Shown piece by piece: positions 13,899 to 54,539 of a DNA stretch of 64,000 bases. The DNA is from Deltaproteobacteria bacterium (GTDB lineage: Bacteria; Myxococcota_A; UBA9160; SZUA-336): the NCBI GenBank assembly GCA_019311115.1, contig JAFDDB010000001.1, positions 30,674 through 94,673 of the forward strand, read 5' to 3'. Both the position numbers and the translations under genes were made by a program. Each line of letters starts with the position of its first letter. Within the stretch, counting starts at the first letter, position 1. Under the pieces are notes generated by a model, which was not told the DNA's origin, made no database searches, and worked only from the letters and a program-made list of their open reading frames with translations.

Positions 13899-14840
13899 AT
13901 GCAGCACTCGCGGACGCCGTGTCGAAGCTGGGGACTCCTGCTGGCCCTCGCGCTGGTCGCTGGCGGCGGCGCGCCCGCCCCAGCCTTCGATGGCGAGCGT
14001 GCCTACCGTGACCTTGTCGAGCTGGTCCGGATCGGCCCACGCCCCGCCGGATCGCCGGGCGCCGCCGCCGCGCGCGAGCTGATCGGAGAGCGCCTGCGCC
14101 AGGCCGGCTGGCGCGTGGACGAACACCCACTGCGCGTCGAGGTGGACGGGCAGGGCATCGACATGACGAACTTGATCGGCGTGATGCCGGGCGAGCGACC
14201 CGGCCTCGTCCTGATCGGCACGCACTACGACACGAAGCGCCTGCCTGGCTTCGTCGGCGCGAACGACGGCGCCTCCGGGGTGGCGGTGCTGCTCGAGCTG
14301 GCGCGAACGCTCGGGGACGCTCCCCGTCCCTACACGGTCTGGCTCGTCTTCTTCGATGGCGAGGAGGCGCTCGGCGCCGGCATCACGGCGAACGACGGGC
14401 TCTTCGGCAGCCGCGCCCTGGCGAGGCAGATGCAGCGCGAGGGCGACTTGGAGAAGATCCGCGGCTTCCTGTTGGTCGACATGGTGGGGGACCGCGACCT
14501 GGGGCTCACCGAGGACGTCGGTTCGACACCCGCCCTGCGCCAGGCCCTGGTGGAGGAAGCCGCGCGGCTGGGTCTCGAGGACGTACTCGGTGGCGGAAGC
14601 GTCGCCCTGATCGACGACCACACCCCGTTCCAGGCGCTCGGAGTCGAGCCGGTCCTCGCCCTGATCGACTTCCGGTTCGGCGGCGACTCGATGCCGGGAC
14701 CGCTCTGGCACACGACGGGAGACGACTTGTCCGCCGTCTCCGCCGAGAGCCTGAATAGCGTGGGGAGGCTGCTGGTCGAAGTCCTGCGGAGAGTCGAGCG
14801 CGAGACCGTCGCGCGCGAGGGCGTCGAAGGTGCGCGCTGA
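13899..14840 (+). CDS. M28-family peptidase / glutaminyl-cyclase-like protein
   Basis: Internal ATG at 13899 gives a signal peptide. Motifs GTHYDTK, NDGASGVAVLLELAR, FFDGEE and VDMVG give the M28 metal-ligand pattern. Confidence 0.75.
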   Translation: MQHSRTPCRSWGLLLALALVAGGGAPAPAFDGERAYRDLVELVRIGPRPAGSPGAAAARELIGERLRQAGWRVDEHPLRVEVDGQGIDMTNLIGVMPGERPGLVLIGTHYDTKRLPGFVGANDGASGVAVLLELARTLGDAPRPYTVWLVFFDGEEALGAGITANDGLFGSRALARQMQREGDLEKIRGFLLVDMVGDRDLGLTEDVGSTPALRQALVEEAARLGLEDVLGGGSVALIDDHTPFQALGVEPVLALIDFRFGGDSMPGPLWHTTGDDLSAVSAESLNSVGRLLVEVLRRVERETVAREGVEGAR

Positions 14841-14937
14841 GGCTCGGATCCACTATCCTGCCGCCTCTTTGGAGAGGCGTCGGGCGGGCAGACACCGGCC
14901 CGACACGGGCTCCGGATTCCGGAGCTGGGGGACCCAC

Positions 14938-15594
14938 ATGATACGTACTGCAACCGCGATCCTCGCGGCCGTTGCACTGGCTACGGCCGGCTGCGCCAGC
15001 GGCGAGGGCGGAATGTCCAAGACCCAGAAGGGCGCCCTGCTCGGCACCCTGGCTGGCGCGGTCGCCGGCGCCGCGATCGGTGGCAAGGACCACCGTGCGG
15101 GCGGCGCGCTGATCGGCGCTGCCGCCGGCGCCGTCGCGGGCGGGTTGATCGGCAACTACCTGGACAAGCAGGCCGAAGAGCTCGACGCGATTCCCGGCGC
15201 CGAGGTCGAGCGCCGCGACGACTCGCTGCTCGTGAACTTCCAGAGTTCGCTGCTCTTCGACACCGGACAGAGCTCGCTGCAGCCGGGCGCGTACGACCGA
15301 ATGCGGTCGCTGGCGCGCACGCTCAACAACTATCCGAAGAGCCGGGTCATCATCAAGGGACACACCGACAGCAGCGGGGACGAGCGCTTCAACCAGACGC
15401 TGTCCGAGGAGCGCGCCGGCACGGTCCGGAACTTCCTGATCTCTGAGGCCGTCGCACCCGGGCGGATGACCGCGATCGGCTTCGGCGAGCAGATGCCCGT
15501 CGCGACCAACAACACCCCGGCGGGACGCCAGCAGAACCGCCGCGTCGAGATCGAGATCCGTCCCGACGAAGAGGTCATGCGCTCTGGCGGCTAG
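14938..15594 (+). CDS. OmpA-family (Pal/YiaD-like) lipoprotein with glycine zipper
   Basis: Internal ATG at 14938. Lipobox LATAGC and Gly-zipper GALLGTLAGAVAGAAIGG. The OmpA C-like domain includes GHTDSSGDERFNQTLSEERA...NRRVEIEI. Confidence 0.85.
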   Translation: MIRTATAILAAVALATAGCASGEGGMSKTQKGALLGTLAGAVAGAAIGGKDHRAGGALIGAAAGAVAGGLIGNYLDKQAEELDAIPGAEVERRDDSLLVNFQSSLLFDTGQSSLQPGAYDRMRSLARTLNNYPKSRVIIKGHTDSSGDERFNQTLSEERAGTVRNFLISEAVAPGRMTAIGFGEQMPVATNNTPAGRQQNRRVEIEIRPDEEVMRSGG

Positions 15595-15642
15595 GCCGCA
15601 CGCGCAGCGCTCTACGGCGTGGAATCGGGAGTCGATCCGCTC

Positions 15643-16905
15643 ATGACGCGTCCAATTCTGCCGCTCGCGCTCGTCTTGGCGCTCGCGGTGCCCCCCGTCT
15701 CGGGGAGCGGGGCGACGGACGAGGAGCCGGTCCGGGTCGTCGTCGACCAGCCCCGCAACGGCGAGATCGTGCGCGGCCGCTTCGACATGGCCCCGCTCTC
15801 GGGACTCGCCCACGCCGGAGCGCGCGCCACGCGCTTCGACGTGATGCTCGTGATCGACGTGTCGGGCTCCACCGCCTACCCGAGCGGCCTCGACGTGAAT
15901 CAGAACGGTGAGCTCGGAGTGCAGCGCGCCGCGACGATGAAGGGTGAGCCGGACACGAAGAACACCGACCCGGGCGACTCCGTGCTCGCGGCGCAGGTCA
16001 CCGCCGGCCGCGCACTGCTCGCGGGCCTCGAGCCCGGCCGGGTACGCGTGGGCGTGGTCAGCTTTTCGGGCGAGATCGACCCGGCCACCGGGCGCCGGCG
16101 CTCGCCGAGACAGGTGGACGCCATGGTCGAGCAGCCGCTGACCGAGGACTACACCGCGGTCGACCGCGCGCTCGAGGCCGTGCACCTGCGCGGTGCGCAC
16201 GGCGGAACCAACATGGAGGCCGGCATCAAGATCGCGTTGCGCGAGCTGGCGGGGCTGCGCGGCGCGCGCTCCACGCCGCGCAAGCACGCGAAGAAGATCA
16301 TCCTGCTGCTCACCGACGGGAAGCCGAGCCTCCCGTACGGACTGGGTTCGGAGGAGGACCAGGAGGACATCGACGCCGTCATCAACGCCGCGCACCTGGC
16401 GCGAGCGGGCGGAGTCATGCTGAACGTGTACGGGCTCGGACCGACGGCCATCGACTACCCGATCGCGGCTTCGGAGGCCGCGCGCGTGACGGGCGGCCTC
16501 TACACGCCCGTGCGTCGCCCCGGTGACATCGTGGCGCTGCTTACCGGCGTGTCGTTCGCCAACGTCGAGGACGTGGTGGCCGTCAACCTGACGATCGCCG
16601 AGATGTCCGCTCCCGAGGACATCCTCACCGCGCCCGACGGCTCGTTCAAGGGATACGTTCCGGTCCGCCCGGGGAAGAACCGCATCCGGATCTCGGCACT
16701 CGCGTCGGACGGATCGCGCGGCTTCACCGAGATCGAGTTCACCTTCCGGCACCAGGAGCTGACGGATGCCGAGATGAACTCCGAGCTGGCGCGGATCCGC
16801 AAGCGGAACCGGGAGCTTCAGCTCCTGATGGAGCAGGAGCGTCAGAAGGCGTTTCGCAAGTCGATTCGCGAGCGCGACCTCGAGATCAAGATCGAAGGCG
16901 AGTAG
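15643..16905 (+). CDS. secreted von Willebrand factor A domain protein
   Basis: Signal peptide from M at 15643. MIDAS motif LVIDVSGST, then LLLTDG. The C-terminus is a charged coiled coil. Confidence 0.75.
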   Translation: MTRPILPLALVLALAVPPVSGSGATDEEPVRVVVDQPRNGEIVRGRFDMAPLSGLAHAGARATRFDVMLVIDVSGSTAYPSGLDVNQNGELGVQRAATMKGEPDTKNTDPGDSVLAAQVTAGRALLAGLEPGRVRVGVVSFSGEIDPATGRRRSPRQVDAMVEQPLTEDYTAVDRALEAVHLRGAHGGTNMEAGIKIALRELAGLRGARSTPRKHAKKIILLLTDGKPSLPYGLGSEEDQEDIDAVINAAHLARAGGVMLNVYGLGPTAIDYPIAASEAARVTGGLYTPVRRPGDIVALLTGVSFANVEDVVAVNLTIAEMSAPEDILTAPDGSFKGYVPVRPGKNRIRISALASDGSRGFTEIEFTFRHQELTDAEMNSELARIRKRNRELQLLMEQERQKAFRKSIRERDLEIKIEGE

Positions 16906-16925
16906 AGACGTAGGAGGGGGGGAAG

Positions 16926-17735
16926 TTGAAGACGATCATGCTCATCGCGGTCCTGGTGCTCGGACTGCTCGGTGGCATCGCGGGCATGGTGTCGCCCGTG
17001 CTGGCCCAGCAGGCGCCCGAAGCCGCGGCACCCGCTTCGCCGGGAACACCCGAAGCCTCGGAAGACGACCCCGAGGGCCGGACGCTCGCGGACTGGTACG
17101 CGATGGGCGGCTGGATCATGCACGGGCTGGTGCTCTGCTCGATCCTGACGCTGGCCATGGTCTTCGAACGCCTCTGGGCGCTGCGCCGCGGCGCGGTGAT
17201 TCCGCGCCGCTTCATGCGCAAGCTCATGGAGCACTGGCGCAACCGGGACATCCCCCAAGTGATCGCGATGTGCGGCGAGTCCGACGTGTCGATCGCGCGG
17301 GTACTGCGCGCGGGTCTGCTCCACTTCGACGAGGGCCTGACGCGCGTCGAGGGCGCGATCGAGGTGGCGGGCGAGCACGAGGCGACACTGCTCCGGCGCA
17401 ACCTGTCCGTGCTCTCCGCGCTCGGAAACATCGCCACGATGATGGGACTGCTCGGCACGGTGCTCGGCATGATCGAGTCGTTCGACCTGATCGCGCAGAC
17501 CGGTACGGGCGACGCGCGCGTCGTAGCCGGCGGGATCTTCCAGGCGCTCGTCACGACGGCGGCTGGCCTGATCGTCGGCATCACGGCCGTGGGCTTCCAC
17601 TCGTACCTGCGGCGCAAGGTCGAGATCCTCGAGATCGACCTCGAAGACACGTCGTTCAGGCTGATGGAAGAGATCAGCCTCGAGCGCGAGTCGGCGGGCG
17701 AAGCCCCGGCCGGCCTGACGCCGCAGGAGGCCTGA
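16926..17735 (+). CDS. exbB: MotA/TolQ/ExbB proton-channel family protein
   Basis: LSALGNIATMMGLLGTVLGMI and GGIFQALVTTAAGLIVGI signatures. The N-terminal signal-like segment is followed by a Pro/Ala/Glu-rich linker. Confidence 0.85.
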   Translation: MKTIMLIAVLVLGLLGGIAGMVSPVLAQQAPEAAAPASPGTPEASEDDPEGRTLADWYAMGGWIMHGLVLCSILTLAMVFERLWALRRGAVIPRRFMRKLMEHWRNRDIPQVIAMCGESDVSIARVLRAGLLHFDEGLTRVEGAIEVAGEHEATLLRRNLSVLSALGNIATMMGLLGTVLGMIESFDLIAQTGTGDARVVAGGIFQALVTTAAGLIVGITAVGFHSYLRRKVEILEIDLEDTSFRLMEEISLERESAGEAPAGLTPQEA

Positions 17736-17736
17736 G

Positions 17737-18141
17737 ATGGCGCGGCGCCGCCGCGAGTTCGAGGAGGCCAGTCTCAGCATGACGCCGTTGATCGACGTCG
17801 TGCTGCTGCTGCTGATCTTCTACATGGTCACCACCGCGTTCCAGGATCGTGAGATCGAGCTGATGCTCCCGGAGTCGGACAGCTCGGCCATCCCCGAAGA
17901 GAAGAAGAAGTTCGTGATCGAGATCGGCCGCGGCGAGAACGAACTCGCGATGAACGGCGAGCGGATCACCGTCGAGGGGCTCGACCGCGTGATCGAGGTC
18001 GAGGCCGCGGCGGACAACATTCAGTCGGTCGAGATCAAGGCGGACGAGTACGTCTACCACCGGCGCGTGATCCAGGTGCTCGGGATCGTGAAGAAGCACG
18101 GGGTGGACGCGGTGGGGATCGCCGTCCGGGAGAAGCGGTAG
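17737..18141 (+). CDS. exbD: ExbD/TolR biopolymer transport protein
   Basis: TM segment MTPLIDVVLLLLIFYMVT followed by an ExbD periplasmic domain. It starts 1 nt after the exbB stop. Confidence 0.85.
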   Translation: MARRRREFEEASLSMTPLIDVVLLLLIFYMVTTAFQDREIELMLPESDSSAIPEEKKKFVIEIGRGENELAMNGERITVEGLDRVIEVEAAADNIQSVEIKADEYVYHRRVIQVLGIVKKHGVDAVGIAVREKR

Positions 18142-18169: not shown

Positions 18170-19525
18170 CTAGTTGAGCGCGGACGGGTTCAGGACTTCC
18201 TTGCGCGCCAGCTTGCCCTTGCGGTAGTGCGATTTCACGTCGATGTCGCCGTCGGCGTTCAGGTCCTGGTCCTTGCGCACGAGCACCATTCCGCCCGGGT
18301 CATCGCCCTCGTAGTGCTCCCAGACGTCGGGGTTCCCGTCGGCGTTGGTGTCCTTCTCGATCCGGGTCGGGATCCCTGTCGCGTCGTAGTAGATCCAGAC
18401 GTCCATCTCGCCGTCGCCGGTGCTGTCCTCGAGCTCGACCGCGCGCCTGCGGTCGCGGTACTGCACGCGGCGGTCGACGCGGCCGTCGCCGTTGGTGTCG
18501 TGCTCCTCGGTGCGTAGCGAGCCGTCGGTGTAGGTGTAGGTGCCGTCGCGCTTGCCGTCGAAGTTGCGATCCACCTCGACCGAGGTGCCGCGGTTGTTCT
18601 CGTAGCGTGTCCAGCGGTCGGGCTTGCCGTCGCCGTTGGTGTCCTCGGCGCGCTGCGCGATCTGCCCGTCCTCGTAGGTATTGTGTGCATCGAGCTGACC
18701 GTCGTAGTCGGTGTCTTCGGAGCGGCGGATCAGGTCACCCGACTTCGCGTCGAAGACCAGCTCGATCTCGGGGTGGCCGTCGCGGTCGGCGTCCAGGGTC
18801 TTGACGACGCGCTCCTGCCGGCCCTCCTTGACCATGGCCTTCTCGTAGAGCGAGTCCGGAATGTCCTTCCGCTCGTAGGGCGGGGCGGGCGAAGAGAGCG
18901 GGTCGTTGGCGAACTCGCCCTCGCTGCGTTCGTCCTGCTCGTGCTTGATCGACTCGTTGATATCTTCCTGGCGGCTGATGGCGGCCAGCAGCTCTTCCTG
19001 CCGCCGCAGCTCGTCCTCGATCTCGCTCTCGAGAGCGTCCTGCCGGTCGAGCTCGTCGTCGATCTCGCGCTCGAGCGCTCCGTCCGCGCCTCCGGCGGCC
19101 GGTCCGGCCGGGCCGCGGGCGGGGCGGCCGGTGTCAAAGGGAACGTCTCCGGTCACCAGGCCGTAGAGCCCGAACAGCGTGGCTCCCGCGAGCGCGCCGT
19201 ACGGACCCGCGATCTGGCCACCGATCACGGTCCCGACGATGAGTCCCTCGGCTGCGCTCTCGGCGTGCTTCTGCAGGGTCGACGGCTTGGAGCGCTGGGC
19301 GGAGTTCGAGGCGGGCTGGGCGGCCTCGCCGCCCGGGGTGACCTCGCCATCCGCGCTCGCGCCGTCCTGCTCGGCGGCCTCGGCTTCGGCCGCGTCGATC
19401 TCGGCCTCGGCGGCCGCATCGGCGCCCCGCGCGGGCGGCCAGTTGGCCGGAGCGGTCGTAGAGCACGCCACGCTCGCCAAGGCCAGCAGGGCCACGCCGG
19501 CTGCGCTGAGGATGGGTCGGCTCAT
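18170..19525 (-). CDS. lipoprotein with glycine zipper, acidic coiled coil and about 8 DxDxDG repeats
   Basis: Lipobox LASVAC and glycine zipper GLIVGTVIGGQIAGPYGALAGATLFGLYGLVTG. The C-terminal half carries about 24-aa repeats, for example DTNGDGKPDRWTRYENNRGTSVEV. GGAGG RBS. The gene sits 45 nt downstream of the 1149-aa gene. Confidence 0.7.
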   Translation of the reverse strand: MSRPILSAAGVALLALASVACSTTAPANWPPARGADAAAEAEIDAAEAEAAEQDGASADGEVTPGGEAAQPASNSAQRSKPSTLQKHAESAAEGLIVGTVIGGQIAGPYGALAGATLFGLYGLVTGDVPFDTGRPARGPAGPAAGGADGALEREIDDELDRQDALESEIEDELRRQEELLAAISRQEDINESIKHEQDERSEGEFANDPLSSPAPPYERKDIPDSLYEKAMVKEGRQERVVKTLDADRDGHPEIELVFDAKSGDLIRRSEDTDYDGQLDAHNTYEDGQIAQRAEDTNGDGKPDRWTRYENNRGTSVEVDRNFDGKRDGTYTYTDGSLRTEEHDTNGDGRVDRRVQYRDRRRAVELEDSTGDGEMDVWIYYDATGIPTRIEKDTNADGNPDVWEHYEGDDPGGMVLVRKDQDLNADGDIDVKSHYRKGKLARKEVLNPSALN

Positions 19526-19570
19526 TGGGGGTCGGGGCCTCCGGTGAGCAAGGCTAGCACGGGGGGCCCA

Positions 19571-22500
19571 TCAGCTCTTCCTGGCCCAGAACTCGCTGAA
19601 GTCGCGGCAGCGGACCCGCTCGAAGCGCTCGATCGAGGGCGGCATCCCGCCGTTGGCGAGCGGGATCTCGGCCTCGGTCTGCAGGTCGAACTGCTGATCC
19701 ACGGCCCCGTCGAAGTCGCTGTCCTCCATCTGGACCGCGGCCTGTCCTCCCTGGAACGTGATCCAGACGTCGGGGAGGCGATCGGCGTTCGTGTCCGCAT
19801 CCAGGCGTGTCTGCTCGCCGTCGTCGAAGACCTGGCGGCGGTCCGCCCAGCCGTCCTTCGTCGAGTCCTCGAGCGCGCTGCTGACGACGCCAGCGGCGTA
19901 CTCGATGACCTCGTACGGCGTGCAGCGGTACACCGGGACTCCGCCCTTGTCGAAGCGCGTCAGGCGGTCCGGCCGGCCGTTGCAGTTGCGGTCCTCTTCC
20001 TGGAGCAAGACGCGCTCCTCTTCGCTCTGCGGATCGAAGTGGATCACGATGTTGGGCTTGCTGCAGCGGCCGCGCGCCTCGGCTTGGAGGATGCGCCGCC
20101 CGTTCGCGAAGTCGACCCACACATCGATGATGTCGTTCTGGTTGGTGTCGATCTGCCGTCGCACGATCACGCCTGCCTCCAGGAACGAGGTCGTGTCGTA
20201 CCGACAGTCGCCATCGGTGTCGACGATGTCCTCCTTGAGGTCGCCGGTCTCGTCGAGCACCTGCTTGTGGTCGAGGCAGCCGTCGCCCGAGGAGTCCTCC
20301 TCGACCTCGCGCGGCTTGCCGTCGACGTAGCGCATGACGCGGTTCGGCTTGCCGTCCTCGTCCGCGTCCTCGATGCGCTCGGTGGGCGTGCCGTTGGCGT
20401 CATACCGGGTCAGCAGATCGGCCTTGCCGTCACGGTCGCCATCCTCGCGGCTCTCCCGTACCTGCCCATCCGCGTACAGCGACAGCCACTGGTCGACGTT
20501 GCCGTCCGCGTCGCTGTCGAGCTCTTGCGCCACGGCGACGCCGTCCTTCAGCGTCACGGTCGCGTCGTACACGCCGTCCAGGTCGGTGTCTTCCGCGATG
20601 CGGTGGGGATCCTCGGCTCCGGCCTTGAAGTACGCCCGGCGGTCCGCGATGCCGTCGGCGTTCTTGTCCGTCTCGACGCGGGCGCGCTCGCCCTTCTCGA
20701 AGTACGAGATCGAGTCATAGAGCCCGTCCCGCGTGGTGTCCGCCTCCTGGCGCGACAGCACGTCGCCTTCGAAGTACGAGATGGTGTCGACCTGGCCGTC
20801 CCCGTCCGAGTCTTCTTCCTGCCGCTCCCGCCCGCCCTCGCTCTTCAGGTGGAGGCGCGTGTCGAAGTTGCCGTCGAAGGTGGTGTCGGAGCGGGTCGTC
20901 GCCGCCACGCCGTCCTGGTAGAGGGTGACCTGGTCGTCCTGCCCGTCGAAGTTGCGGTCTTCGCGCTGCTCGGTCTGCACCCCGGCCACGTACGTCTTGA
21001 AGAGGTCGGGCCTTCCGTCGGCGTTGGTGTCGATCTCGTCGGTCGCGGGTTTCCCCTCGGCGTCGAACAGCGTGACCTGGTCGTAGGCGCCGTCGTTCGT
21101 CGAGTCGGTCTGCTGGCGGATCATGGCGCCGCCCTCGAAGTGGCTGACCACCTCGGCGCGGCCGTCCTCGTCCGAGTCGCGCTCCTCGCGGACGCGCACC
21201 TCGCCGGACTCGTCGTAGAAGGTCCGGCCCTCCGGCACGGCGTCGCCGTCCGCGTCGTGTTCGACGATCGACCGCTTGCCCGCCTCGTAGCGGACGTGCA
21301 GGTCGAAGACGCCGTCGTGGTTCTCGTCGGTCCAGTCGCGGGAGACCCGCCCCTGTGCGTCGTACTCCGCGCGGTAGTCGTCGCGCCCGTCGTGGTTGCG
21401 GTCCTCGCGCATCGCCTTGGGCACCTCGCCCGCCAACTCCAGGTGCCGGTCCGGCTTGCCGTCGCCGTCCGTGTCGAGTTCCTGCGACACGCGGACGCCG
21501 TTCTCGAAGTCCGTCCAGCTGTCGGCGCGGCCGCTGTTGTCGGTGTCCTCGATCATCCGCGTCTGCTGGCCGGTCTCGGGGTCGAGAATCAGCCAGCGGT
21601 CCGCGTCGCCGTCCTTGTCGGTGTCGAGTTCCTGCTTCTCGAGCTTTCCGTCGGCGTAGAAGTTCCACAGGTCGGGCTTCGAGTCGTAGTCCTCGTCGAC
21701 CTCCTGTCGTACGGCCACGCCGTTCTCGAGGAACTCCTCGAAGTCGATCCCGCCGTCGCCGTTGCGGTCCTGCTGGCGGTGCTTCGGCTTGCCGTCCTCG
21801 AACTCGATCTGCAGGTCGAGCAGGCCGTCGCCATTGGTGTCCTCGCGCTGCGAGAGTACCTCGTCGCCGTCGAACACGTAGTCGATGTCGATGCGGCCGT
21901 CGAAATCACGGTCCTCGCGCTGCCCGCTGCGCTTCTCGTCCTCGAACGCCACGAACGTGTCGGCCTTGCCGTCCCGGTTCGAGTCGATGTCCCGCGTCTT
22001 CAGTTCACCGGCGGTGTAGGACTCCACGACCTCCGGCCGGCCGTCCTCGTCCATGTCGCGTTCCTGCCGCACCAGCAGGTCGTTCTCGTAGCTGCGGCGG
22101 GTGTCGACCTTGCCGTCTACGTCGGAGTCGACCTCCTCCCGCTGGCGCACCTCGTTCGCGTCGTAGTACACGTAGAGTTCGGTGATGCCGTCCGCCTCTG
22201 CGTCCCGCTCCTGCCTCACGCGTTTCCCGTTCTCGAAGTAGATCTTCGTGTCGCGCTTGCGGTCGTAGTCGGTGTCGATTTCTTCGCGGCTGATCTGGTC
22301 GTTGTCGTAGAACCCGAAGCGGTCGAAGTCGCCGTCGTCGTTCGTGTCCTTCTCGGTCCTCGACTGCTTTCCGTCGGTGTAGTAGATGCGCAGGTCGAAC
22401 GCGCCGGTCGCGTTGGTGTCCTGCTCCTCGAGTTCGCGCTCGCCGTCCGCGCGGTAGTGGGCCCGGGTCTCGGGGCGGCCGTCTTCGTTGCGGTCGATGA

Positions 22501-23020
22501 GCGTCTCGCCGATCCAGGTGACGGCCGGCTCGCTGCCCGACGCAGGCTTGCTCTTGTACAGCGAGATCTCGTTCGGCTTGCCGTTGCCGTCGGGATCCTT
22601 CTCGAGCCGGACCTTGAGGCCGTTCTCGTAGCGGAGGTGGTAGTCGGCCTCGCCCGTGCCGGTCGTGTCGCGCTTCTCGAACGCGGGCCGTCCCTGCAGG
22701 TCGAGCTCGACCCACAGGTCGATGCGCCCGTCGTGGTCGGTGTCCTGCTCCTGCCGGGTCATCTTGGGCCCGTGGAAGAACTGCCAGAGGTCGACGTCGC
22801 CGTCGAAGTTCTCGTCGAGCTCGATGCGCACCGGCTTGGGGCTGCCGGCGTAGTGCTCCCACAGGTCGATCTTGCCGTCCTGGTTCTGGTCCTTCTCGAT
22901 GCGCAGCAGTTGCTCGTTGTCGTCGTACAGGTACTGGTCGGGGTAGTCGAGCGCGGCGAGCGCGGCGCGAGGTCCGATCAGCGCGCAGAGCGCGAGTAGA
23001 GCGGCGAGGGGGCGGAGCAT
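19571..23020 (-). CDS. giant secreted repeat protein (about 42 tandem 24-aa DxDxDG units)
   Basis: 1149 aa with a signal peptide (MLRPLAALLALCALIGPRAALA). It is almost wholly D-[TSR]-[DN]-x-D-G-x-x-D-x4-[YF]-x2-G-x5-[EQ] repeats. Its ATG abuts the tonB-like stop codon. Confidence 0.8.
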   Translation of the reverse strand: MLRPLAALLALCALIGPRAALAALDYPDQYLYDDNEQLLRIEKDQNQDGKIDLWEHYAGSPKPVRIELDENFDGDVDLWQFFHGPKMTRQEQDTDHDGRIDLWVELDLQGRPAFEKRDTTGTGEADYHLRYENGLKVRLEKDPDGNGKPNEISLYKSKPASGSEPAVTWIGETLIDRNEDGRPETRAHYRADGERELEEQDTNATGAFDLRIYYTDGKQSRTEKDTNDDGDFDRFGFYDNDQISREEIDTDYDRKRDTKIYFENGKRVRQERDAEADGITELYVYYDANEVRQREEVDSDVDGKVDTRRSYENDLLVRQERDMDEDGRPEVVESYTAGELKTRDIDSNRDGKADTFVAFEDEKRSGQREDRDFDGRIDIDYVFDGDEVLSQREDTNGDGLLDLQIEFEDGKPKHRQQDRNGDGGIDFEEFLENGVAVRQEVDEDYDSKPDLWNFYADGKLEKQELDTDKDGDADRWLILDPETGQQTRMIEDTDNSGRADSWTDFENGVRVSQELDTDGDGKPDRHLELAGEVPKAMREDRNHDGRDDYRAEYDAQGRVSRDWTDENHDGVFDLHVRYEAGKRSIVEHDADGDAVPEGRTFYDESGEVRVREERDSDEDGRAEVVSHFEGGAMIRQQTDSTNDGAYDQVTLFDAEGKPATDEIDTNADGRPDLFKTYVAGVQTEQREDRNFDGQDDQVTLYQDGVAATTRSDTTFDGNFDTRLHLKSEGGRERQEEDSDGDGQVDTISYFEGDVLSRQEADTTRDGLYDSISYFEKGERARVETDKNADGIADRRAYFKAGAEDPHRIAEDTDLDGVYDATVTLKDGVAVAQELDSDADGNVDQWLSLYADGQVRESREDGDRDGKADLLTRYDANGTPTERIEDADEDGKPNRVMRYVDGKPREVEEDSSGDGCLDHKQVLDETGDLKEDIVDTDGDCRYDTTSFLEAGVIVRRQIDTNQNDIIDVWVDFANGRRILQAEARGRCSKPNIVIHFDPQSEEERVLLQEEDRNCNGRPDRLTRFDKGGVPVYRCTPYEVIEYAAGVVSSALEDSTKDGWADRRQVFDDGEQTRLDADTNADRLPDVWITFQGGQAAVQMEDSDFDGAVDQQFDLQTEAEIPLANGGMPPSIERFERVRCRDFSEFWARKS

Positions 23021-24061
23021 CTAGTCATTTCCGTGCGTGAAGGTAGCGACCAGCCCCTGGGTGATGATGTAGTGGATCTCCTTGGGGGGCGGCGGGAACG
23101 GGCTCGCGTGCCGGAAGGCCTGCAAGCAGGTGGAGCCGAGCTGCTTGCCGTCGGTGCGCACCACCTTGAGGCCGTGCGCGGACCCGCCGCGGTCGATCCG
23201 GAAGCGCAGGTCGACGGTGCCCGCCCCGACCTCGACGGGCGGATTCCAGCGCGAGTAGACGCGGTCGCGGATCATGCGCAGGTAGGCCAGGCAGACCGGG
23301 TCCTTGCGGCAGTCCTTGGCGACTCCGCCGGGGAGCGAGCCGCGGTCCCCGTCGCCGTGCAGCATGCTCTCCGCCGTGCCGGAGTCGCGCGCGTTGATCT
23401 TGGCGCCCTGCAGGTCGCCGTCGACGACCGTGTCCGACGCCACGCCGCGGACGATCTCGGGCGCATCCACGTCGGCGGCGCGCGGGTTCGTGATCGGTCC
23501 CGAGGCCTCGAGCTTGCGCGGACCGGCCGACGCCTTGGTCACCGAGACCCGGCGCACCGTCGGCGCGACCTGGTCGACCTCGATCGGCTGGATCGGGGTC
23601 ACGACCTCGGCGAACGCGCTCACCTTGGTCGTGTCCACCTTGCGCCGCACGACTTCCTTGGGCGCCTCGGTGATCTGCATGCGCTCGACCTCGACGCGGT
23701 CGGCGCGGTGGATCTCGGGCACCGGCTTGAGTTGCTGGACCTTGGGCTGCACCACGTTCTTGAAACGCTTGACGGACGAGTCGAGGATGCGCCGCGCCAG
23801 GATCTTGGGCTTGGGCGGCTCGGGCCGTTCCTCGAGCATCCGGACCTCGACCGTCTCCTCTTCCGGGATGAACACGTCGAGCAGCACGTCCCAGAACAGC
23901 AGCAGGAGCGCCAGGTGAAGGGCCAGCGACAGGATGATCAGCCACCAGGAGCGGTCGTTGCGCCGCTCGTCCGGGTCGAAAGCCGGCAGGCTGGCCGCAA
24001 GCTGGGCCGCGATGCTGGACGACGCCATGGTCGGCGCTGCGATGGCGGACTGGTCGGTCAT
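23021..24061 (-). CDS. TonB/TolA-like energy transducer
   Basis: Internal ATG at 24061, in frame with ORF 23021..24430. TM segment WWLIILSLALHLALLLLFW and Pro/Lys/Glu spacer EERPEPPKPK. The C-terminal TonB_C-like domain includes VDLRFRIDRGGSAHGLKVV...ASPFPPPP. An alternative ATG lies at 24088. Confidence 0.7.
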   Translation of the reverse strand: MTDQSAIAAPTMASSSIAAQLAASLPAFDPDERRNDRSWWLIILSLALHLALLLLFWDVLLDVFIPEEETVEVRMLEERPEPPKPKILARRILDSSVKRFKNVVQPKVQQLKPVPEIHRADRVEVERMQITEAPKEVVRRKVDTTKVSAFAEVVTPIQPIEVDQVAPTVRRVSVTKASAGPRKLEASGPITNPRAADVDAPEIVRGVASDTVVDGDLQGAKINARDSGTAESMLHGDGDRGSLPGGVAKDCRKDPVCLAYLRMIRDRVYSRWNPPVEVGAGTVDLRFRIDRGGSAHGLKVVRTDGKQLGSTCLQAFRHASPFPPPPKEIHYIITQGLVATFTHGND

Positions 24062-24603
24062 CGGCTGGCGGATTCCCCCCGCTCCCATGTTGCTTGTTGG
24101 CCCGGCCAATCGGTGGCGGGCCCCGGAGCCTTGGATCCCTTCCCCCTCTGCTCTATTCGTCCAGGACGTCAGCTCGGCTGAGCGGAATCCAGCCGCGCCG
24201 CTGTGGGCCCCAGGCGGGGCTTCGGGCCGCTGGAGCGCAGACCAACTTAGGGCTCGGATGCGGCCCCTGTCAACCGTCGTCCGTGCGGTAAGTGGCCGAT
24301 GTAAAAGAACTTTTACCTCGATGTCGGAAGCGTCCCCGCCACCCCTCCCGTGACGCGCTGCGGCGCCCGTTGACAACGTGCGTCGAACCCGTGATCGTCG
24401 ATCGGCTGCTCGGAAATGGTTGCGAGCCACTCTCCGGATCAGGCTGCTGCGCTCAGTCCCCCCACCGATCGAACCGATAAGCAGGCTCCAGGGCCGGTAT
24501 CAGGGCGGTGGGACGACGGCCGGGCCGGTCCGCTGGAGGGGGGATCCAGGACGGATGGCGGGATTCGAGCGCTTCGGCGCATGGAACGGGACGCGGACCT
24601 GAC

Positions 24604-25917
24604 ATGGGTCTGACGCTGATCCAGCGCAGCTCGGGGCAGAGGCCCCCGCGCAACCCCAAGATCGCACTGGTCCTGGCCGGCGGTGCGGTCACCGGTGGCG
24701 CCTTCAAGGTGGGCGGGCTGCGGGCGCTGGACGAGTGCCTGGTCGGCCGCGGCGTCTCGGACCTCGATCTGTACGTGGGCCTCTCGGCTGGCGCATTCCT
24801 GGCCACGTCGCTGGCTGCCGGGCTGACGCCGGACGACATGATCGGCGCGCTCGAGGGTACCTCGAGCCGCCTGTCGCAGCTCCGGCCCCTGGACTTCTAC
24901 CGCCCGAACACGGGCGAGTTCATCAACCGGCCGCTGAACTTCTCGGCGCGCCTGGCGGGCTACCTGCCGGGTCTGGCGCTGGATCTGCTCTCAGTGTTGC
25001 CGCAGCTGCCGCGCCGGCTGGGCCCGAGCGTGCGGCGGCTCTTCGAGGAGCCGAACTACACCCACGTAGAGTCGCTGCTGATGGACCTGTTCGACGAGAT
25101 CTCGCCGAAGCGGCAGTTCCCCGCGCTCGGCAGCCTGATCCCGTCCGGGCTCTTCGACAACGCGGCGCTCGAGCGCTGGCTGGCGCAGAACATGGCGGCG
25201 GTCCAGCGGCCGAACCGCTTCGACGAGCTGTACCGCGACACCGGCCGCAAGCTCTTCATCACGGCCTCGAACCTGGATACGGCCGAGCGGGTGGTGTTCG
25301 GGCCGGACGACGACCACGGGCTCTCGATCTCGCAGGCGGTCCAGGCGTCGAGCGCGCTGCCCGGCTTCTTCCGGCCGGCCCGCATCAACGGGGTGGACTA
25401 CGTGGACGGCGGCGTGCAGCGCACGGCCAACATCGACGTAGCGATCGAGCAGGGGGCCGACCTGGTCATCTGCTACAACCCGTTCCGCCCGTTCCTGAAC
25501 GAGGTCGACCTGAGCAGTCCGTCGTACCTGGCCGACCGGGGAATGGGGACGGTGATCAGCCAGGTCTTCCGCACGCTGCTCCACACGCGGCTCCGGCTGG
25601 GCCTGCGGTCCTACCTGCACGACCACCGCTTCCGGGGCGACATCGTGGTGATCGAGGCCCGGGAGACGGACGAGCAGTTCTTCGACCTGAACCCGATGGC
25701 GTTCTGGAAGCGCTCGGACGGCATGCGCCACGGCTTCGAGTCCGTGCGCCAGACCCTCTCGGACCACGCGGACGTGCTGGGCCCGCTCCTCGAGTCCTAC
25801 GGCCTCGACTTCCGGGCCCCCGGCGCCCAGCCCGAGGCGGCCGCGTCCCGGGCGCCCGGTGCCGATGGCTCCGCGGATGAGCCTGCCCTGCGGCTGGTCG
25901 GCACCCGGGCGACCTGA
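24604..25917 (+). CDS. patatin-like phospholipase
   Basis: Internal ATG at 24604. Motifs LAGGAVTGGAFKVG (oxyanion), GLSAGA (GxSxG) and VDYVDGG (Asp of the dyad). Confidence 0.85.
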   Translation: MGLTLIQRSSGQRPPRNPKIALVLAGGAVTGGAFKVGGLRALDECLVGRGVSDLDLYVGLSAGAFLATSLAAGLTPDDMIGALEGTSSRLSQLRPLDFYRPNTGEFINRPLNFSARLAGYLPGLALDLLSVLPQLPRRLGPSVRRLFEEPNYTHVESLLMDLFDEISPKRQFPALGSLIPSGLFDNAALERWLAQNMAAVQRPNRFDELYRDTGRKLFITASNLDTAERVVFGPDDDHGLSISQAVQASSALPGFFRPARINGVDYVDGGVQRTANIDVAIEQGADLVICYNPFRPFLNEVDLSSPSYLADRGMGTVISQVFRTLLHTRLRLGLRSYLHDHRFRGDIVVIEARETDEQFFDLNPMAFWKRSDGMRHGFESVRQTLSDHADVLGPLLESYGLDFRAPGAQPEAAASRAPGADGSADEPALRLVGTRAT

Positions 25918-26068
25918 GCCACAGCGCTGCCCGGGGCTGAAAAGCCGCGAGAAACCGGGTGCTTGGCGCTACCTGCCGGTTGTTCGAGCGAGCCCCGGAT
26001 GCTATGATCCGCCTTCCGCGCACCGCACCGGGAGAGTCTCGTCCCCGGATGCTGCCCGAGCCGTCCAC

Positions 26069-26824
26069 ATGTGCACACTGATCGTCCTCGACCGAGTCGT
26101 GCCCGGCGTACCGCTCTTGGTGGCGTCCAATCGAGACGAGTACTTCCGTCGGCCCGCGGCGCCGCCCGCACGGGTCGCGTCACGGGACGGGCGGCCTGCC
26201 TTCGTCGCGCCCCAGGATCTGGAGGCGGGCGGGACGTGGATGGGGCTGAACGACCGCGGCTTGTTCGTCGGACTCACGAATCGCGCCACGCTGCGGCGCG
26301 AGGACGACCGGCGCTCGCGGGGATTGCTGGTCCTGGATGCCCTGGGCCGGAGCAGCGCAGAGGAGGTCGCCGCCGAAATGCACGAAGGTCTCGAGGGCGC
26401 CTACAACCCGTTCCACCTGCTCTGCGCAGACGGCCACAGCGCCCACCTGACGGTGCTGCGCGATGACGGAGCCTCGACGATCGCCCTCGACCCCGGTGCC
26501 CACGTGGTCTGCAACCACGATCCCGACGATCCGGGTTCGAGCAAGGTGCGGGACCTGCAGCAGCGCGTCGACGCGCTGGACGTCGGCCTGCCGCTCGAGG
26601 CCCTGATGGACGCGCTGGCCGAAGTGCTGTCGAGCCACGCCGAGCCCGGCAATCCGCTCTCGAGCGCGTGCGTGCACACGCCGGACTACGGCACGCGCTC
26701 CTCCACGCTGATCGCCCTCGGCCCGGAGCAGCGCCGCTACTGGCACAGCGACGGACCGCCCTGCGAAGCCAAGTACCGCGACCTGGGAACGCTCCTCGAC
26801 GGAGTCGCTTGCCGGGCCGACTGA
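26069..26824 (+). CDS. NRDE family protein (TANGO2/DUF833-like)
   Basis: Internal ATG at 26069. MCTLIV N-terminus (Ntn-like Cys2), VASNRDEYFRRP and GGTWMG. Confidence 0.75.
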   Translation: MCTLIVLDRVVPGVPLLVASNRDEYFRRPAAPPARVASRDGRPAFVAPQDLEAGGTWMGLNDRGLFVGLTNRATLRREDDRRSRGLLVLDALGRSSAEEVAAEMHEGLEGAYNPFHLLCADGHSAHLTVLRDDGASTIALDPGAHVVCNHDPDDPGSSKVRDLQQRVDALDVGLPLEALMDALAEVLSSHAEPGNPLSSACVHTPDYGTRSSTLIALGPEQRRYWHSDGPPCEAKYRDLGTLLDGVACRAD

Positions 26825-30448: not shown

Positions 30449-31065
30449 TTGCGCCAGGCGCGGCGCAGCCACTCGTACGCGCGCGCTTCCGCGGCCTCCA
30501 TCTCTTCGGGCAGGACACGCCCCGACACGAAGAGCAGCGTCGCGGGCATGCGGCCGCGGAAGATCAGGCCCGGGGCCGACAGCAGCTGCTCGCGGTAGGC
30601 GTTCTCGACGGGACGCCCGTCGTAGATCAGCAGGTAGGCGGCCATCGGCACCAGCGGGTCGGCGAGTCCACGCTCGTAGCGCGGCCGGTGCACGGGCAGG
30701 TCTCCATCCTCGTCCTCGATCCAGACGACTTCCTGCCGGACGGGCCGGCTCCGCTGCAGCAGCTTGTACTCCGGCCGGTAGTAGATGTGCTTGGCGTCGG
30801 GGCCGCGCGCGATCACGTACTCGAGCGTGGAGCCACCGTCCGCGCGCAGCTTTCCTCGGCGCCACAGCGCGGGCTTCATGCGCTCTTCGATGTACTGCAG
30901 GTGCGGAGTCGGATCGTCTCCCGGGTCCCATCTGGGCGCGAGCGCGGTCGGGTTCGCGCAATCGTCGCCCTGCATTCCCAGGTACGCGTGAAGCGTCACG
31001 GGGACCAGCGCCAAGGCCAGCAACACCGAAAGGTGTGGAACCCAGCGGGAGGAAGGCGAGATCAC
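30424..31065 (-). CDS. epsI: EpsI-like exosortase-associated protein
   Basis: GTG at 31065 overlaps the exosortase stop (GTGA). A single N-terminal TM (VPHLSVLLALALVPVTL) precedes a roughly 190-aa periplasmic domain. The call rests mainly on position and topology. Confidence 0.55.
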   Translation of the reverse strand: MISPSSRWVPHLSVLLALALVPVTLHAYLGMQGDDCANPTALAPRWDPGDDPTPHLQYIEERMKPALWRRGKLRADGGSTLEYVIARGPDAKHIYYRPEYKLLQRSRPVRQEVVWIEDEDGDLPVHRPRYERGLADPLVPMAAYLLIYDGRPVENAYREQLLSAPGLIFRGRMPATLLFVSGRVLPEEMEAAEARAYEWLRRAWRNYRDVCVP

Positions 31066-31946
31066 GCCGGCTCCTCGGTTCGCCGATCGCGGCCGGCGAC
31101 CAGCAGCAGCAGGACGAGCGTCACCCCGAACGCGATCAGGCCCGACGCCTCGTGCGCCGCCGTCTCCAGCAGGTCGAAGCTCCCGTAGTGCGCCATCAGC
31201 ACGAGGCCCGTCACGCGGACGATGTTGCAGCCGATCGCGAGGGCAGCACCGGCGGCCAGGATCGCGACGCGCCGCTGCACCGTCGAGGCCATGTAGGCCA
31301 GGATCAGGGACAGCGTCATGGCCGCGTAGAACGTCGAGAAGCCGCTGCACGCGTCCGAGACGAGCACCGTTCCGGTCGGGATGATCAGGGTGGTGCCGTC
31401 GCGAACGACCGAGATCCCGAGCCAGGGGATCAGGCCGGCGGTCGCCCAGGCCGTGATCTCGCGCAGGACCTGGTGCACGGGAGCGACTGCCGCGGCAGGG
31501 AAGGGCAACATGAAGAACGCCAGCAGCAGCGGGAAGACGAGCGCGCGCGTGCGCCGAACGCCCAGCAGCAACAGCGCGAGGCCCGGCAGCGCCAGCAGCA
31601 GTGCGAAGGCCGAGAGCACCTGCGTGTGGATCGCCAGGTCGAAGATGCGCAAGAGCAGGGCGGGGACGAGAAAGGCGAAGCCGAGCGCCGAGCCCGGCTC
31701 CCGCGTGTCTCCGTCCTGGCGTCGGAACGTGTCCCAGAACAGCCAGCCGACGAGGATCGGGATGAAGAGGCGGTGACCGTCGAACCAGATGCGCGTCGTC
31801 CAGCGGTCGACCAGCCAGGCGAGGGTGGGGGTGAAGACGGCCAGGAAGAGCACGAGCCACGCGATGTGCGCCCAGCGCTCTGCAGCGGCCGGCATCGCCA
31901 GCGCGAAGCGCCGCGGCTCTGCTGCGATTTCTTCGGATGTACTCAT
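31062..31946 (-). CDS. exosortase family protein
   Basis: 294-aa polytopic membrane protein with signature residues DACSGFS (Cys), NIVRV (Arg) and a late AAHEASG (His). Confidence 0.8.
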   Translation of the reverse strand: MSTSEEIAAEPRRFALAMPAAAERWAHIAWLVLFLAVFTPTLAWLVDRWTTRIWFDGHRLFIPILVGWLFWDTFRRQDGDTREPGSALGFAFLVPALLLRIFDLAIHTQVLSAFALLLALPGLALLLLGVRRTRALVFPLLLAFFMLPFPAAAVAPVHQVLREITAWATAGLIPWLGISVVRDGTTLIIPTGTVLVSDACSGFSTFYAAMTLSLILAYMASTVQRRVAILAAGAALAIGCNIVRVTGLVLMAHYGSFDLLETAAHEASGLIAFGVTLVLLLLVAGRDRRTEEPA

Positions 31947-47317: not shown

Positions 47318-48600
47318 CCTCTTCGGCCTGCCCGCCCTACCTCGAGGTAGCGTCGCGCCGCGAGCAGCAACGGCTTCGGGTCCGCGGCGTCGCCTGCAAA
47401 CCGCGCCGCGTCTGCGGCGCGCAGGATGCGCAGCGCCTCTGCGTCGTCGATGCGCTCGGCAAGCTCCGACGTCGTGAGCGGCGACGGGTCGAGCGACCAG
47501 CGCACGCGCACGCCCGCCTTCACCGCGGCGGAGAGCAGCGACGGAAAGTCGGGGCTGCCCGCAGCTTGCTCGGCGCGCGCCAGGAGCCCCGCGAGGTCGG
47601 GCTCGGGCTCGCGAGCCCGACCTCGCGGGGCGCCGCGCCACCAGCGTGCCAGCGCCCACCCGCTGACGGTCAGCAGGCCGACCAGCACGAGCCCGATCGG
47701 CCACGCCAGGCCCGGCCGCAGCGAGACCTCACCCGCGCGCTCGCGCGCCTCCCAGGGAGCGCGCTGCACGGCCCCGCGCCGGACCACCTCGAGAGCGAGT
47801 GGCTCCGAAGAAGCGCGGCGGTAGCGGCCGGCGGCCGGGTCGAAGTAGTCGACCCGGAACGCCCCGATCGTGTGCGTTCCCGTCTCCTGCGGCACGACGT
47901 CGAAGCGGAAGCGGCGCCGCGAGACCAGACGTCCCTTGCGCGTGTCGGTCAGGGTTCGCGGCCGTTCGGCGAAGACCTCGACATCTCTCCCGATCAGGGC
48001 GGCGAGGTCGGGCGGGGAGACGTCCCACACGTTGCCCGCGCCGAACACGTCGACGTCGACGCCGATGGCCCGCCCCACCGTGACCTGGTCGCCGTCGGCG
48101 CTCACCCGCACCTCGAGCGGCCCGACCAGCCCGTCGAAGCCCTCCGGCCGCCCCGCTTCGGGGAGGGCGCGCACCCGCACGCGCACGCCCGGAACGTCGA
48201 TCTCGGCTTCGTCGCCGTCCCGCGTCTTTACGCGCAGAATCGAGCTGGGCACCTCGAGCGTGCCCGTTCGCGTGGCGTAGAGCGCGCGCCGGAACAGCGT
48301 GGTGCGCGCGGCATCGCGGCCGCCCGGGTGCAGCAGCGCGCTGCCTTCGCTCGGCATGCGCTCGACCCAGAACCCCTCGCAGACCGGGGGCTCCCAGCGC
48401 GGCCGTGCGTACAGGTGGTGCACGACCGTCAGCTCGAGGACCAACTGCTCGTGCAGGAACGGCTGGTCGCGGTCGACGCGCGTTCGCACGTCGATCACGC
48501 CGGGCACGTCGATTACGGCCTCCGCCCGCGCGGAGCCCGTGAGCGCCCAGACCGCCGCTTGTACGCAGAGGGCGGCGATCCGGTACGAGCCCGGTCTCAC
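47314..48600 (-). CDS. batD: BatD-like protein
   Basis: GTG at 48600 overlaps the upstream stop (GTGA). Signal peptide, a large periplasmic domain, and a late TM (GLAWPIGLVLVGLLTV). It is the last gene of the bat operon. Confidence 0.65.
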   Translation of the reverse strand: MRPGSYRIAALCVQAAVWALTGSARAEAVIDVPGVIDVRTRVDRDQPFLHEQLVLELTVVHHLYARPRWEPPVCEGFWVERMPSEGSALLHPGGRDAARTTLFRRALYATRTGTLEVPSSILRVKTRDGDEAEIDVPGVRVRVRALPEAGRPEGFDGLVGPLEVRVSADGDQVTVGRAIGVDVDVFGAGNVWDVSPPDLAALIGRDVEVFAERPRTLTDTRKGRLVSRRRFRFDVVPQETGTHTIGAFRVDYFDPAAGRYRRASSEPLALEVVRRGAVQRAPWEARERAGEVSLRPGLAWPIGLVLVGLLTVSGWALARWWRGAPRGRAREPEPDLAGLLARAEQAAGSPDFPSLLSAAVKAGVRVRWSLDPSPLTTSELAERIDDAEALRILRAADAARFAGDAADPKPLLLAARRYLEVGRAGRRG

Positions 48601-54053: not shown

Positions 54054-54539
54054 TCAGCGGCGGCGCAGGCGGTCGAGCGTCGCCGTGGTCCGCACGCCGG
54101 GCGTCTGGCGCAGGGCCACGAAGGAGCCGCCCAGCTCTTCGATCGCGAGCGACTCCGGCGTGTCGAGGCCCCGGTACTCGCCGCCCTTGCAGACGACGTC
54201 GGGGCGCAGCGCGCGGATCAGCGGTGACGCGTCGGCCTCGGGAAACAGCACGACCCAGTCGACGACGGCGAGGCCGGCGACCATCTCGGCGCGCTGCCGT
54301 TCGGGCGTGACCGGCCGGCCCGCGCCCTTCAGTTTGCGCACGCGGCGGTCGCGGTTCACGCCCACGACCAGCACGTCGCCGAGCGCGGCGGCCTGCTCGA
54401 AGCTGCGCAGGTGGCCGACGTGCAGCAGGTCGTAGCAGCCGCTGGTGAAGACGATGCGCCGTCCCCGCCGCCGCTCGCGCGCCAGGCGAGCGGCCAGGGC
54501 GCGGCGCCCGATCACCCTATCCCGGGCGCGAGAGATCAC
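54054..54539 (-). CDS. D-glycero-beta-D-manno-heptose-1-phosphate adenylyltransferase-like cytidylyltransferase
   Basis: FTSGCYDLLHVGH (HxGH), VGVNRD and a RfaE domain II-like length. Confidence 0.8.
   Translation of the reverse strand: MISRARDRVIGRRALAARLARERRRGRRIVFTSGCYDLLHVGHLRSFEQAAALGDVLVVGVNRDRRVRKLKGAGRPVTPERQRAEMVAGLAVVDWVVLFPEADASPLIRALRPDVVCKGGEYRGLDTPESLAIEELGGSFVALRQTPGVRTTATLDRLRRR

Follow-up and report, generated by a model that had tools for sequence, protein, structure and literature searches.

REP and its repeat array

The window analyzed here is a 64,000-nucleotide stretch of contig JAFDDB010000001.1 (assembly GCA_019311115.1), derived from a Deltaproteobacteria bacterium of the Myxococcota_A. 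Between positions 19571 and 23020 of its reverse strand lies an open reading frame (ORF) whose protein, named REP in this report, is an exported chain of 42 repeat units carrying a DxDxDG loop. Its gene directly follows a TonB/TolA-like gene and stands beside genes for an ExbB/ExbD-type motor. The features of REP itself are listed below, with amino acid (aa) positions.

19571..23020, minus strand: REP gene, 1149 aa (1149 codons), an ORF with coding-type codon bias
22949..23020, minus strand: REP signal peptide, aa 1-24, MLRPLAALLALCALIGPRAALA with cleavage before AL; Sec type by eye, no lipobox
19652..22891, minus strand: array of 42 units of 24 residues, aa 44-1123, from a unit profile, inspection by eye and Asp autocorrelation
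20297..22495, minus strand: uninterrupted core of 30 consecutive units, aa 176-908, spaced 24-26 residues apart by the unit profile
19574..20296, minus strand: C-terminal part, aa 909-1149, with the same units carrying insertions, six mature Cys and a terminal C-x2-F-x2-F-W motif

The ORF is a real gene encoding an exported protein of an uncultured marine myxobacterium, an organism that occurs in marine sediment metagenomes. The GC contents of its three codon positions (0.70/0.38/0.94, i.e., a GC2 of 0.38 and a GC3 of 0.94) are typical of genuine genes in this window of 70% GC. A 1438-codon ORF on the opposite strand (18683-22999, plus strand), antisense to REP and the adjoining lipoprotein gene, is a mirror artifact of GAC-rich coding, and the same coding bias accounts for an AT skew of -0.23 to -0.33 over 18-24 kb. 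At the N terminus, the full-length structural model of REP shows a helix at aa 3-14, and hydrophobic N termini are found in the orthologues too. Mature REP would comprise ~1125 aa and ~128 kDa, with a computed pI of 4.29 and net charge of -146. Lipidation of REP was considered and ruled out, given the Leu at position -1 of Cys12 and the absence of Cys12 from the orthologues.

The repeat units were delineated with a hidden Markov model (HMM) built from ten clean REP units and iterated on REP. This unit HMM recovers 40 units at a spacing of 24-26 residues, and inspection by eye adds two more, both degenerate, at aa 142 and aa 909. The resulting total of 42 agrees with the original prediction, made by reading the DNA by eye, of about 42 units. 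In addition, the autocorrelation of Asp along REP peaks at a lag of 24. Within the unit, D1 and Y/F/L14 are present in 42/42 cases, D/E9 in 40, D5 and G6 in 36 each, D/N3 in 35, and G17 in 21. REP contains 25 copies of the strict loop pattern D-x-[DN]-x-[DN]-G-x-x-[DE], compared to an expectation of 0.14 ± 0.37 and a maximum of 3 over 2000 composition-preserving shuffles, while a relaxed pattern fits 41 of the 42 units. At the DNA level, Tandem Repeats Finder detects no 72-bp array within the gene, and the units share a mean identity of 27% (highest, 58%). The array is therefore old and not the product of a recent amplification, as had been proposed before.

Seven Cys residues are present in REP: one at position 12 in the signal peptide and six in the mature protein (915, 939, 986, 1013, 1033, and 1138), all within the last 235 residues. 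The Cys cluster of the original prediction is thus real, and C915, C939, and C1138 are invariant in the orthologues together with the terminal C-x2-F-x2-F-W motif. It had also been suggested that the periodicity breaks in this region and that a distinct C-terminal module begins there. Neither point held, since the periodicity continues to ~aa 1123, interrupted only by insertions, and the C-terminal part is built from the same units and not clearly separate.

Full-length orthologues of REP were found only in Myxococcota metagenome-assembled genomes (loci L001-L006 and L008, 30-50% identity) and on one JGI metagenome contig (P0001). At an identity of only 32-50%, their lengths stay within a narrow range, with orthologues of 1143, 1145, 1090, 1112, 1087, and 1145 aa compared to 1149 aa for REP (range, 1087-1149 aa). 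The units also correspond one by one. In the two close orthologues, the best match is the positional counterpart for 30-33 of 40 REP units; in distant orthologues this still applies to 7-13 of 40 units, where chance predicts ~1. The giant array is thus old, with every unit individually constrained. Its fixed unit count is a new observation, as is the linkage of this giant form to TonB-like and ExbBD genes described below.

Predicted fold, calcium-type loops and relatives of the repeat

The fold of the unit was predicted on a fragment from the uninterrupted core:

21548..22129, minus strand: eight modeled units, aa 298-491, AlphaFold model with a predicted local distance difference test score (pLDDT) of 96.7

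The alignment supplied to AlphaFold2 for this fragment contained 120 small relatives and three other eight-unit stretches of the window. The fragment is predicted with high confidence (pLDDT, 96.7; predicted TM-score [pTM], 0.86), and each unit strictly repeats a 9-residue DxDxDGxxD loop, a 6-residue strand, a 2-residue turn formed by the D/N-G of positions 16-17, and a 7-residue strand. In the model, the units join as one continuous antiparallel hairpin ribbon. Because the connections of such a meander alternate between the sheet edges, all DxDxDGxxD loops of the modeled ribbon must line up along one edge and the tight turns along the other, a placement that follows from topology and not from inspected coordinates. 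A model of full-length REP, computed from an alignment of uneven depth (1-66 rows), again gives confident hairpins where the alignment is deep, with an unreliable overall shape.

When the eight-unit model was compared by Foldseek to predicted viral structures (BFVD), nearly all of the top fifty matches were MORN or YwqK-type proteins (E, 1.7e-10 to 1e-7; TM-score normalized to the query [TMq], 0.5-0.66). These matches place the predicted fold of REP in the MORN/YwqK-like class, in agreement with the label "YwqK antitoxin" that JGI gives to some REP relatives. Matches in the PDB are only loose (E ~1e-4, TMq ≤0.53) and consist of single-layer hairpin sheets, namely engineered OspA, Rhs/YD and teneurin shells, and the beta domain of SdgB/TarM. 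No close solved structure for the scaffold was found in the PDB by sequence, profile, or Foldseek searches, and a sequence search with whole REP returned nothing meaningful (Rab5 at E 0.53).

REP shares with MORN/YwqK proteins (COG2849) the hairpin units of ~23-24 residues that form one elongated, twisted antiparallel sheet. However, it lacks the GxG and YEGEW signatures and has no Pfam MORN match, and it is exported, in contrast to the cytoplasmic classical MORN proteins. The loop lengths are reversed as well. In MORN1, five residues make up the hairpin loop and six the inter-repeat loop (PMC7725318), compared to two residues within the hairpin and nine between units in REP. Moreover, the inter-unit loop of REP is a DxDxDGxxD calcium-type site, which is absent from MORN proteins.

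The calcium sites of integrin propeller blades consist of a nine-residue D-x-D/N-x-D-G-x-x-D/E loop between two antiparallel strands, and in such integrin-type hairpin sites the ion is bound by the side chains of positions 1, 3, 5, and 9 and the carbonyl of position 7. Like integrin alpha/FG-GAP proteins, REP carries this pattern within a beta-hairpin in its 25 strict and 41 relaxed units. The likeness to known calcium proteins ends at the loop, unlike what the original comparison to EF-hand, integrin, and thrombospondin implied. REP is modeled as an open hairpin ribbon with one site per 24 residues, and not as a four-stranded blade, a helix-loop-helix, or a dockerin. Its loops are flanked by beta-strands and not, as the 12-residue loop of the EF-hand is, by helices, so that only the DxDxDG pattern is common to REP and the EF-hand. 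Thrombospondin type 3 repeats are Asp-rich, laced with Cys and devoid of regular secondary structure, whereas REP has no Cys between aa 13 and 914 and forms regular hairpins.

It is extremely improbable that REP consists of integrin-like FG-GAP beta-propellers in series, or that it is a Rhs/YD-type shell around a cargo. Of 93 relatives, 11 do carry FG-GAP_3 matches, with a weak one in P0001, and Rhs and teneurin shells top the Foldseek lists for the PDB. Yet each REP unit spans 24 residues and has two strands, compared to ~60 residues and four strands for a propeller blade, and neither four-strand blades nor the closure of a 7-bladed ring is seen in the eight-unit model. TM-scores to Rhs shells amount to only 0.18-0.30 for the fragment (TMq) and 0.06-0.08 for the full-length model, the consensus lacks a YD motif, and Pfam and NCBIfam find no RHS_repeat and no toxin or cargo domain. 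The confident fragment model, as a prediction, contradicts this propeller or shell arrangement. Of the beta-hairpin solenoid or propeller proposed initially, the coherent, repeating, open hairpin structure thus stands, whereas the propeller falls for want of closure.

The assignment of DxDxDG as a calcium-type motif was borne out at the level of the loop pattern. The Asp and Gly loop positions are kept in nearly all REP units, and in the seven-orthologue alignment they are invariant in many of them, as is the case for D1, D5, or D9. Searched against the PDB, a repeat profile picks up lanmodulin and an EF-hand protein at E 1.4e-6; the match covers only their metal loops, which recur at the same spacing of 24-25 residues. 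Precomputed annotations of REP relatives include EF-hand_5, Dockerin_1, and FG-GAP hits. Ca2+ is abundant in the marine setting, and from the sequence we infer that the REP loops bind it.

The same loops could instead serve a periplasmic buffer or store for Ca2+ or a hard cation such as a lanthanide, a sponge that feeds or protects uptake as lanmodulin does beside its TonB-dependent receptor. This role is quite improbable. It would fit the equal loop spacing of lanmodulin, to which the repeat profile is most similar among PDB sequences, as well as the ~40 candidate sites and the strongly negative charge. Furthermore, one small family member adjoins genes for a P-type cation ATPase and GDT1. 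However, the lanmodulin likeness is confined to the loops, with strands between them in REP and helices in lanmodulin. Lanmodulin loops typically have Pro at position 2, where REP has Thr, Ser, or Arg. A conserved unit count and unit-by-unit orthology are not needed for buffering, and the REP locus encodes no metal transporter.

In curated collections, the best Pfam match of REP is DUF6802 (PF20615), at 17.8 bits compared to a gathering threshold of 27, and the NCBIfam equivalog Lsa25.6 (NF050087, a Leptospira "adhesin") scores 70.1 bits over four partial stretches, with a cut-off of 150. Both models cover a few REP-type units, but members of the two families measure ~100-250 aa, far from the 1149 aa of REP. 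By these scores, REP is related to DUF6802 but lies outside its curated boundary. Among 93 relatives, 34 match DUF6802 at E≤1e-3 (best E 6.6e-46), P0002 scores 38.1 bits, and MORN is not among the 25 families matched most often. For REP itself, Pfam gives no match to EF-hand, FG-GAP, MORN, RHS_repeat, or HemolysinCabind (E≤0.1 for EF-hand and MORN). With Pfam and NCBIfam scores under their cut-offs and an empty PDB sequence search, no named family explains the protein, in line with the original prediction, which could not assign the repeat to one. A literature search on DUF6802, on DxDxDG with TonB, and on GldG/ExbB/Myxococcus likewise returned nothing on this repeat family. It joins a MORN-like scaffold to integrin-type calcium loops and is partly catalogued (DUF6802, "YwqK-like", Lsa25.6) yet uncharacterized.

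The repeat itself is common. At E≤1e-3, an exhaustive HMMER scan of 1.84 billion representative sequences yielded 2779 clusters, of which 599 pass E≤1e-10 and 36 pass E≤1e-30. They are mostly proteins of 200-600 aa with typically 7-8 units; the commonest uninterrupted run is seven units. Many relatives are small lipoproteins from Myxococcota, Desulfobacterales, or Binatia that are annotated as hypothetical. Word-indexed homologue searches gave three hits each with whole REP or the seven-orthologue alignment and 629 with a clean eight-unit alignment, probably because the candidate lists are swamped by Asp-rich words. With an uninterrupted run of at least 25 units compared to the commonest seven, REP is an extreme case of this common, uncharacterized repeat.

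Two small Myxococcaceae lipoproteins of 5-6 units (P0207 and P0271, loci L013 and L014) share a neighborhood unrelated to TonB that encodes an RHH protein, a SPOR-domain protein, a TPR protein, LepA, and signal peptidase. The member near the P-type cation ATPase is P0159 (locus L016, 9159-12705); two GDT1 genes, of a putative Ca2+/H+ antiporter family, lie there as well.

The TonB/Tol-like neighborhood of REP

The genes around REP encode a set of envelope proteins reminiscent of the TonB and Tol systems. They are listed below, together with related parts from other loci.

23021..24061, minus strand: TonB/TolA-like gene, 346 aa, probable start MTDQ, with a transmembrane helix containing S-x3-H, a Pro/Lys-rich linker, and TonB_C
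18170..19525, minus strand: 451-aa probable lipoprotein with LASVAC, a Gly-zipper, an acidic coiled-coil-like stretch, and eight REP-type units at aa 245-444
16926..17735, plus strand: ExbB/TolQ-type proton-channel subunit, convergent with the REP operon
17737..18141, plus strand: ExbD/TolR-type subunit with a transmembrane Asp (LIDVV)
14830..15594, plus strand: OmpA-family peptidoglycan-binding protein, Pal-like, with a Gly-zipper and a lipobox-like LATAGC
15619..16905, plus strand: exported VWA-domain protein with a coiled-coil-like C-terminal tail, between the OmpA gene and ExbB
L002 3297-5009, L003 5046-5834, L004 3832-5420, and the P0001 contig: GldA/GldF/GldG-like ABC parts

The TAG stop codon of the TonB-like gene directly abuts the ATG of REP. 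The longest ORF for this gene (469 aa, 23021-24430, minus strand) starts too far upstream; MTDQ at 24061 is the likely start. The resulting 346-aa protein is close in length to the product of a 341-aa gene on the P0001 contig and, as in TonB and TolA, has S-x3-H in its transmembrane helix. The 451-aa lipoprotein gene follows REP in the same operon; relatives with its N-terminal part also occur elsewhere (P0084, P0081, and P0101). Four genes in a row, OmpA-VWA-ExbB-ExbD (14830-18141, plus strand), are transcribed toward this operon. The ExbB subunit resembles solved structures of ExbB and of TolQ to about the same degree, and all motor components of the locus score below equivalog cut-offs.

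Gene linkage was assessed in loci with enough flanking sequence where a gene match was possible. In all of them, i.e., six genome loci (L001-L005 and L008) and this window, REP lies directly downstream of a TonB-like gene beside ExbB/ExbD, a linkage kept even though these REP orthologues are only 34-50% identical. The recurring gene order in the six genome loci is ExbB-ExbD and then, in divergent orientation, the TonB-like gene with REP behind it. L001 and L005 preserve the whole arrangement, including the complete four-gene row, with TANGO2 and patatin on one side and M28 and ChlI on the other. L002, L003, L004, and L008 retain ExbB-ExbD, the TonB-like gene, and REP, and in L002 a TPR protein gene follows REP. 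The P0001 contig carries ExbB/ExbD and the unassigned 341-aa gene, which overlaps P0001 by 4 bp, and the same neighborhood recurs on L011 and L015, both long-read contigs whose gene calls are fragmented. In P0054, a read-through runs from the end of TonB_C into the REP N terminus.

Two further relatives, which like P0054 speak for the motor link, combine the repeat with TonB-related domains in one polypeptide. P0045 (525 aa) is a natural fusion of a signal peptide, ~11 hairpin units, TonB_C (aa 292-383), and an alpha/beta hydrolase-like C-terminal tail, and P0003 (L009 8001-10652) is a TonB-dependent receptor in which about six hairpin units separate the signal peptide from the plug. The gene for P0003 adjoins amidase, NosL, and DUF1302/DUF1329 genes.

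Upstream of ExbBD, L002, L004, and the P0001 contig carry a GldA/F/G-like ABC set (ATPase, ABC-2 permease, and ABC_transp_aux), complete or in part. Only the ABC-2 permease of this set is present in L003, and the set is not present in this window.

Several other genes were recorded around these loci. The patatin-like phospholipase and TANGO2-family genes (24508-26824, plus strand), which flank the TonB-like gene in the window and are kept in L001 and L005, include a patatin also found in L011. An exosortase (EpsH) gene (31062-31946, minus strand) lies 8 kb from REP, and in L002 an exosortase-like gene (14644-15252, minus strand) lies 1.4 kb downstream of REP, which has no PEP-CTERM tail. Farther along the window, a second VWA-domain protein (48597-50303, minus strand) and a large envelope protein with weak YhdP/DUF748-like (AsmA-type) similarity (54517-57138, minus strand) are encoded. 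In the N-terminal region of REP, the conserved segment LLYDDNEQL was considered as a TonB box and rejected, being the second half of a loop-less unit that forms the first hairpin; the two closest orthologues have VLHYDPETGTL in its place.

Long acidic calcium-binding repeat proteins are often adhesins, and REP could likewise be a Ca2+-dependent adhesin or matrix protein at the surface or beyond the outer membrane, binding surfaces, polysaccharide, or prey. The TonB-like system would then be unrelated or needed only for REP export. We consider this unlikely, although some observations would suit it. VWA-domain and OmpA-family genes lie near REP, and the only curated family with a sizeable REP score (70 bits) is the Lsa25.6 "adhesin", of which the recombinant protein is reported to bind fibrinogen (PMC8657130). 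A role in export has a parallel in Myxococcus xanthus, where secretion of the protease PopC needs a TonB-dependent transporter (PMC6434023). However, the Lsa25.6 score is far under the 150-bit cut-off. No outer-membrane secretion signal was recognized in REP among those of the type I and type V secretion systems (T1SS and T5SS), the C-terminal domain of the type IX system (T9SS), and PEP-CTERM, and none of the loci examined holds an outer-membrane transporter gene. The strict length and positional unit orthology would be unusual as well, since the repeat number of adhesins tends to vary.

Proposed role of REP in the cell envelope

The signal peptide, the conserved Cys residues, and the net charge point to an extracytoplasmic location, which we infer to be the periplasm. 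Our preferred reading, on which we are evenly divided, is that REP would act as a Ca2+-rigidified periplasmic ribbon or strut that works with a dedicated TonB/Tol-like motor. The REP chain would be unfolded in the low-Ca2+ cytoplasm, cross the inner membrane by Sec, and then fold and stiffen as periplasmic Ca2+ fills the loops along one edge, so that as many as ~40 integrin-type Ca2+ hairpin sites would line that edge like a rail. Once folded, it would be a rigid strut or ruler of fixed length. Repeats 7-15 of MORN1 (nine repeats) span ~80 Å (PMC7725318), i.e., ~9 Å per unit, and a REP ribbon with the rise per unit of MORN would therefore reach ~35-40 nm if uncoiled, which is of the order of the periplasm width. 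The conserved length and the positional correspondence of units suggest, at the sequence level, such a ruler-like constraint.

In this proposal, REP would cooperate with the translationally coupled TonB/TolA-like protein, which it may contact physically, and the neighboring ExbB/ExbD proton motor. It would serve as a strut, a ruler, or a force-bearing connection between the TonB-like protein and an outer partner. The 451-aa lipoprotein would be a candidate membrane-anchored docking partner. The whole set could form a trans-envelope machine of the Tol-Pal or gliding-motor kind, comparable to the placement of TolB after TolA and to the periplasmic Glt proteins.

Several likenesses to Tol-Pal and TonB-ExbBD can be noted. 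The locus encodes TolQ/ExbB-, TolR/ExbD-, and TolA/TonB-like proteins with the SxxxH transmembrane motif, and the gene for an all-beta partner directly follows the TonB-like gene, as tolB follows tolA. This window adds a gene for a Pal-like OmpA lipoprotein, and L002 one for the TPR protein after REP. In contrast to Tol-Pal, TonB-ExbBD, and the Agl-Glt gliding motor of Myxococcus, however, REP loci carry no TolB propeller, TonB-dependent receptor, or Glt protein, and the REP fold is not known from these systems. RTX beta-rolls resemble REP as long, acidic, exported arrays of Asp-rich Ca2+ sites, and REP may share their Ca2+-dependent folding. They differ in being parallel beta-rolls of the nonapeptide GGxGxDxUx exported by T1SS, where REP has antiparallel 24-residue hairpins and a Sec signal.

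A number of observations weigh against the strut-and-motor proposal. Gene linkage is no proof of physical interaction, and no conserved TonB box or TolA box is definable in the REP orthologues. The TonB_C match of the TonB-like protein is borderline, at 24.4 bits compared to a cut-off of 24.6, with E 0.86 against TonB in the PDB. The 451-aa lipoprotein gene stands beside REP only in the closest loci, L001 and L005. The full-length REP model reaches a pLDDT of only 62.9 and a pTM of 0.46 and is compatible with a straight strut, a superhelix, or a compact coil. No RNA runs holding the REP gene were found. Finally, small members of the family occur in unrelated neighborhoods, so that the motor link is a property of the giant subfamily rather than of the repeat itself.

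A bolder version of the strut proposal, which is speculative and on balance doubtful, would make REP the periplasm-spanning Ca2+ "tendon" of undescribed TonB/Tol-like proton-driven machines in marine Myxococcota. Its ~42 units would be set by the distance between the inner and outer membranes, the motor would pull through edge-strand pairing with the C-terminal domain of the TonB-like protein, and the lipoprotein would dock through the same hairpins.

The repeat would represent a new calcium-site scaffold. The DxDxDG loop is known from the EF-hand, integrin blades, and dockerins, and here it would serve as the regular linker of a MORN-like ribbon. Around 2800 clusters carry this repeat, which is only partly captured by a DUF. 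Its giant form, from bacteria of a little-studied and uncultured group, may be a part that bears force or sets distance in a new envelope machine.

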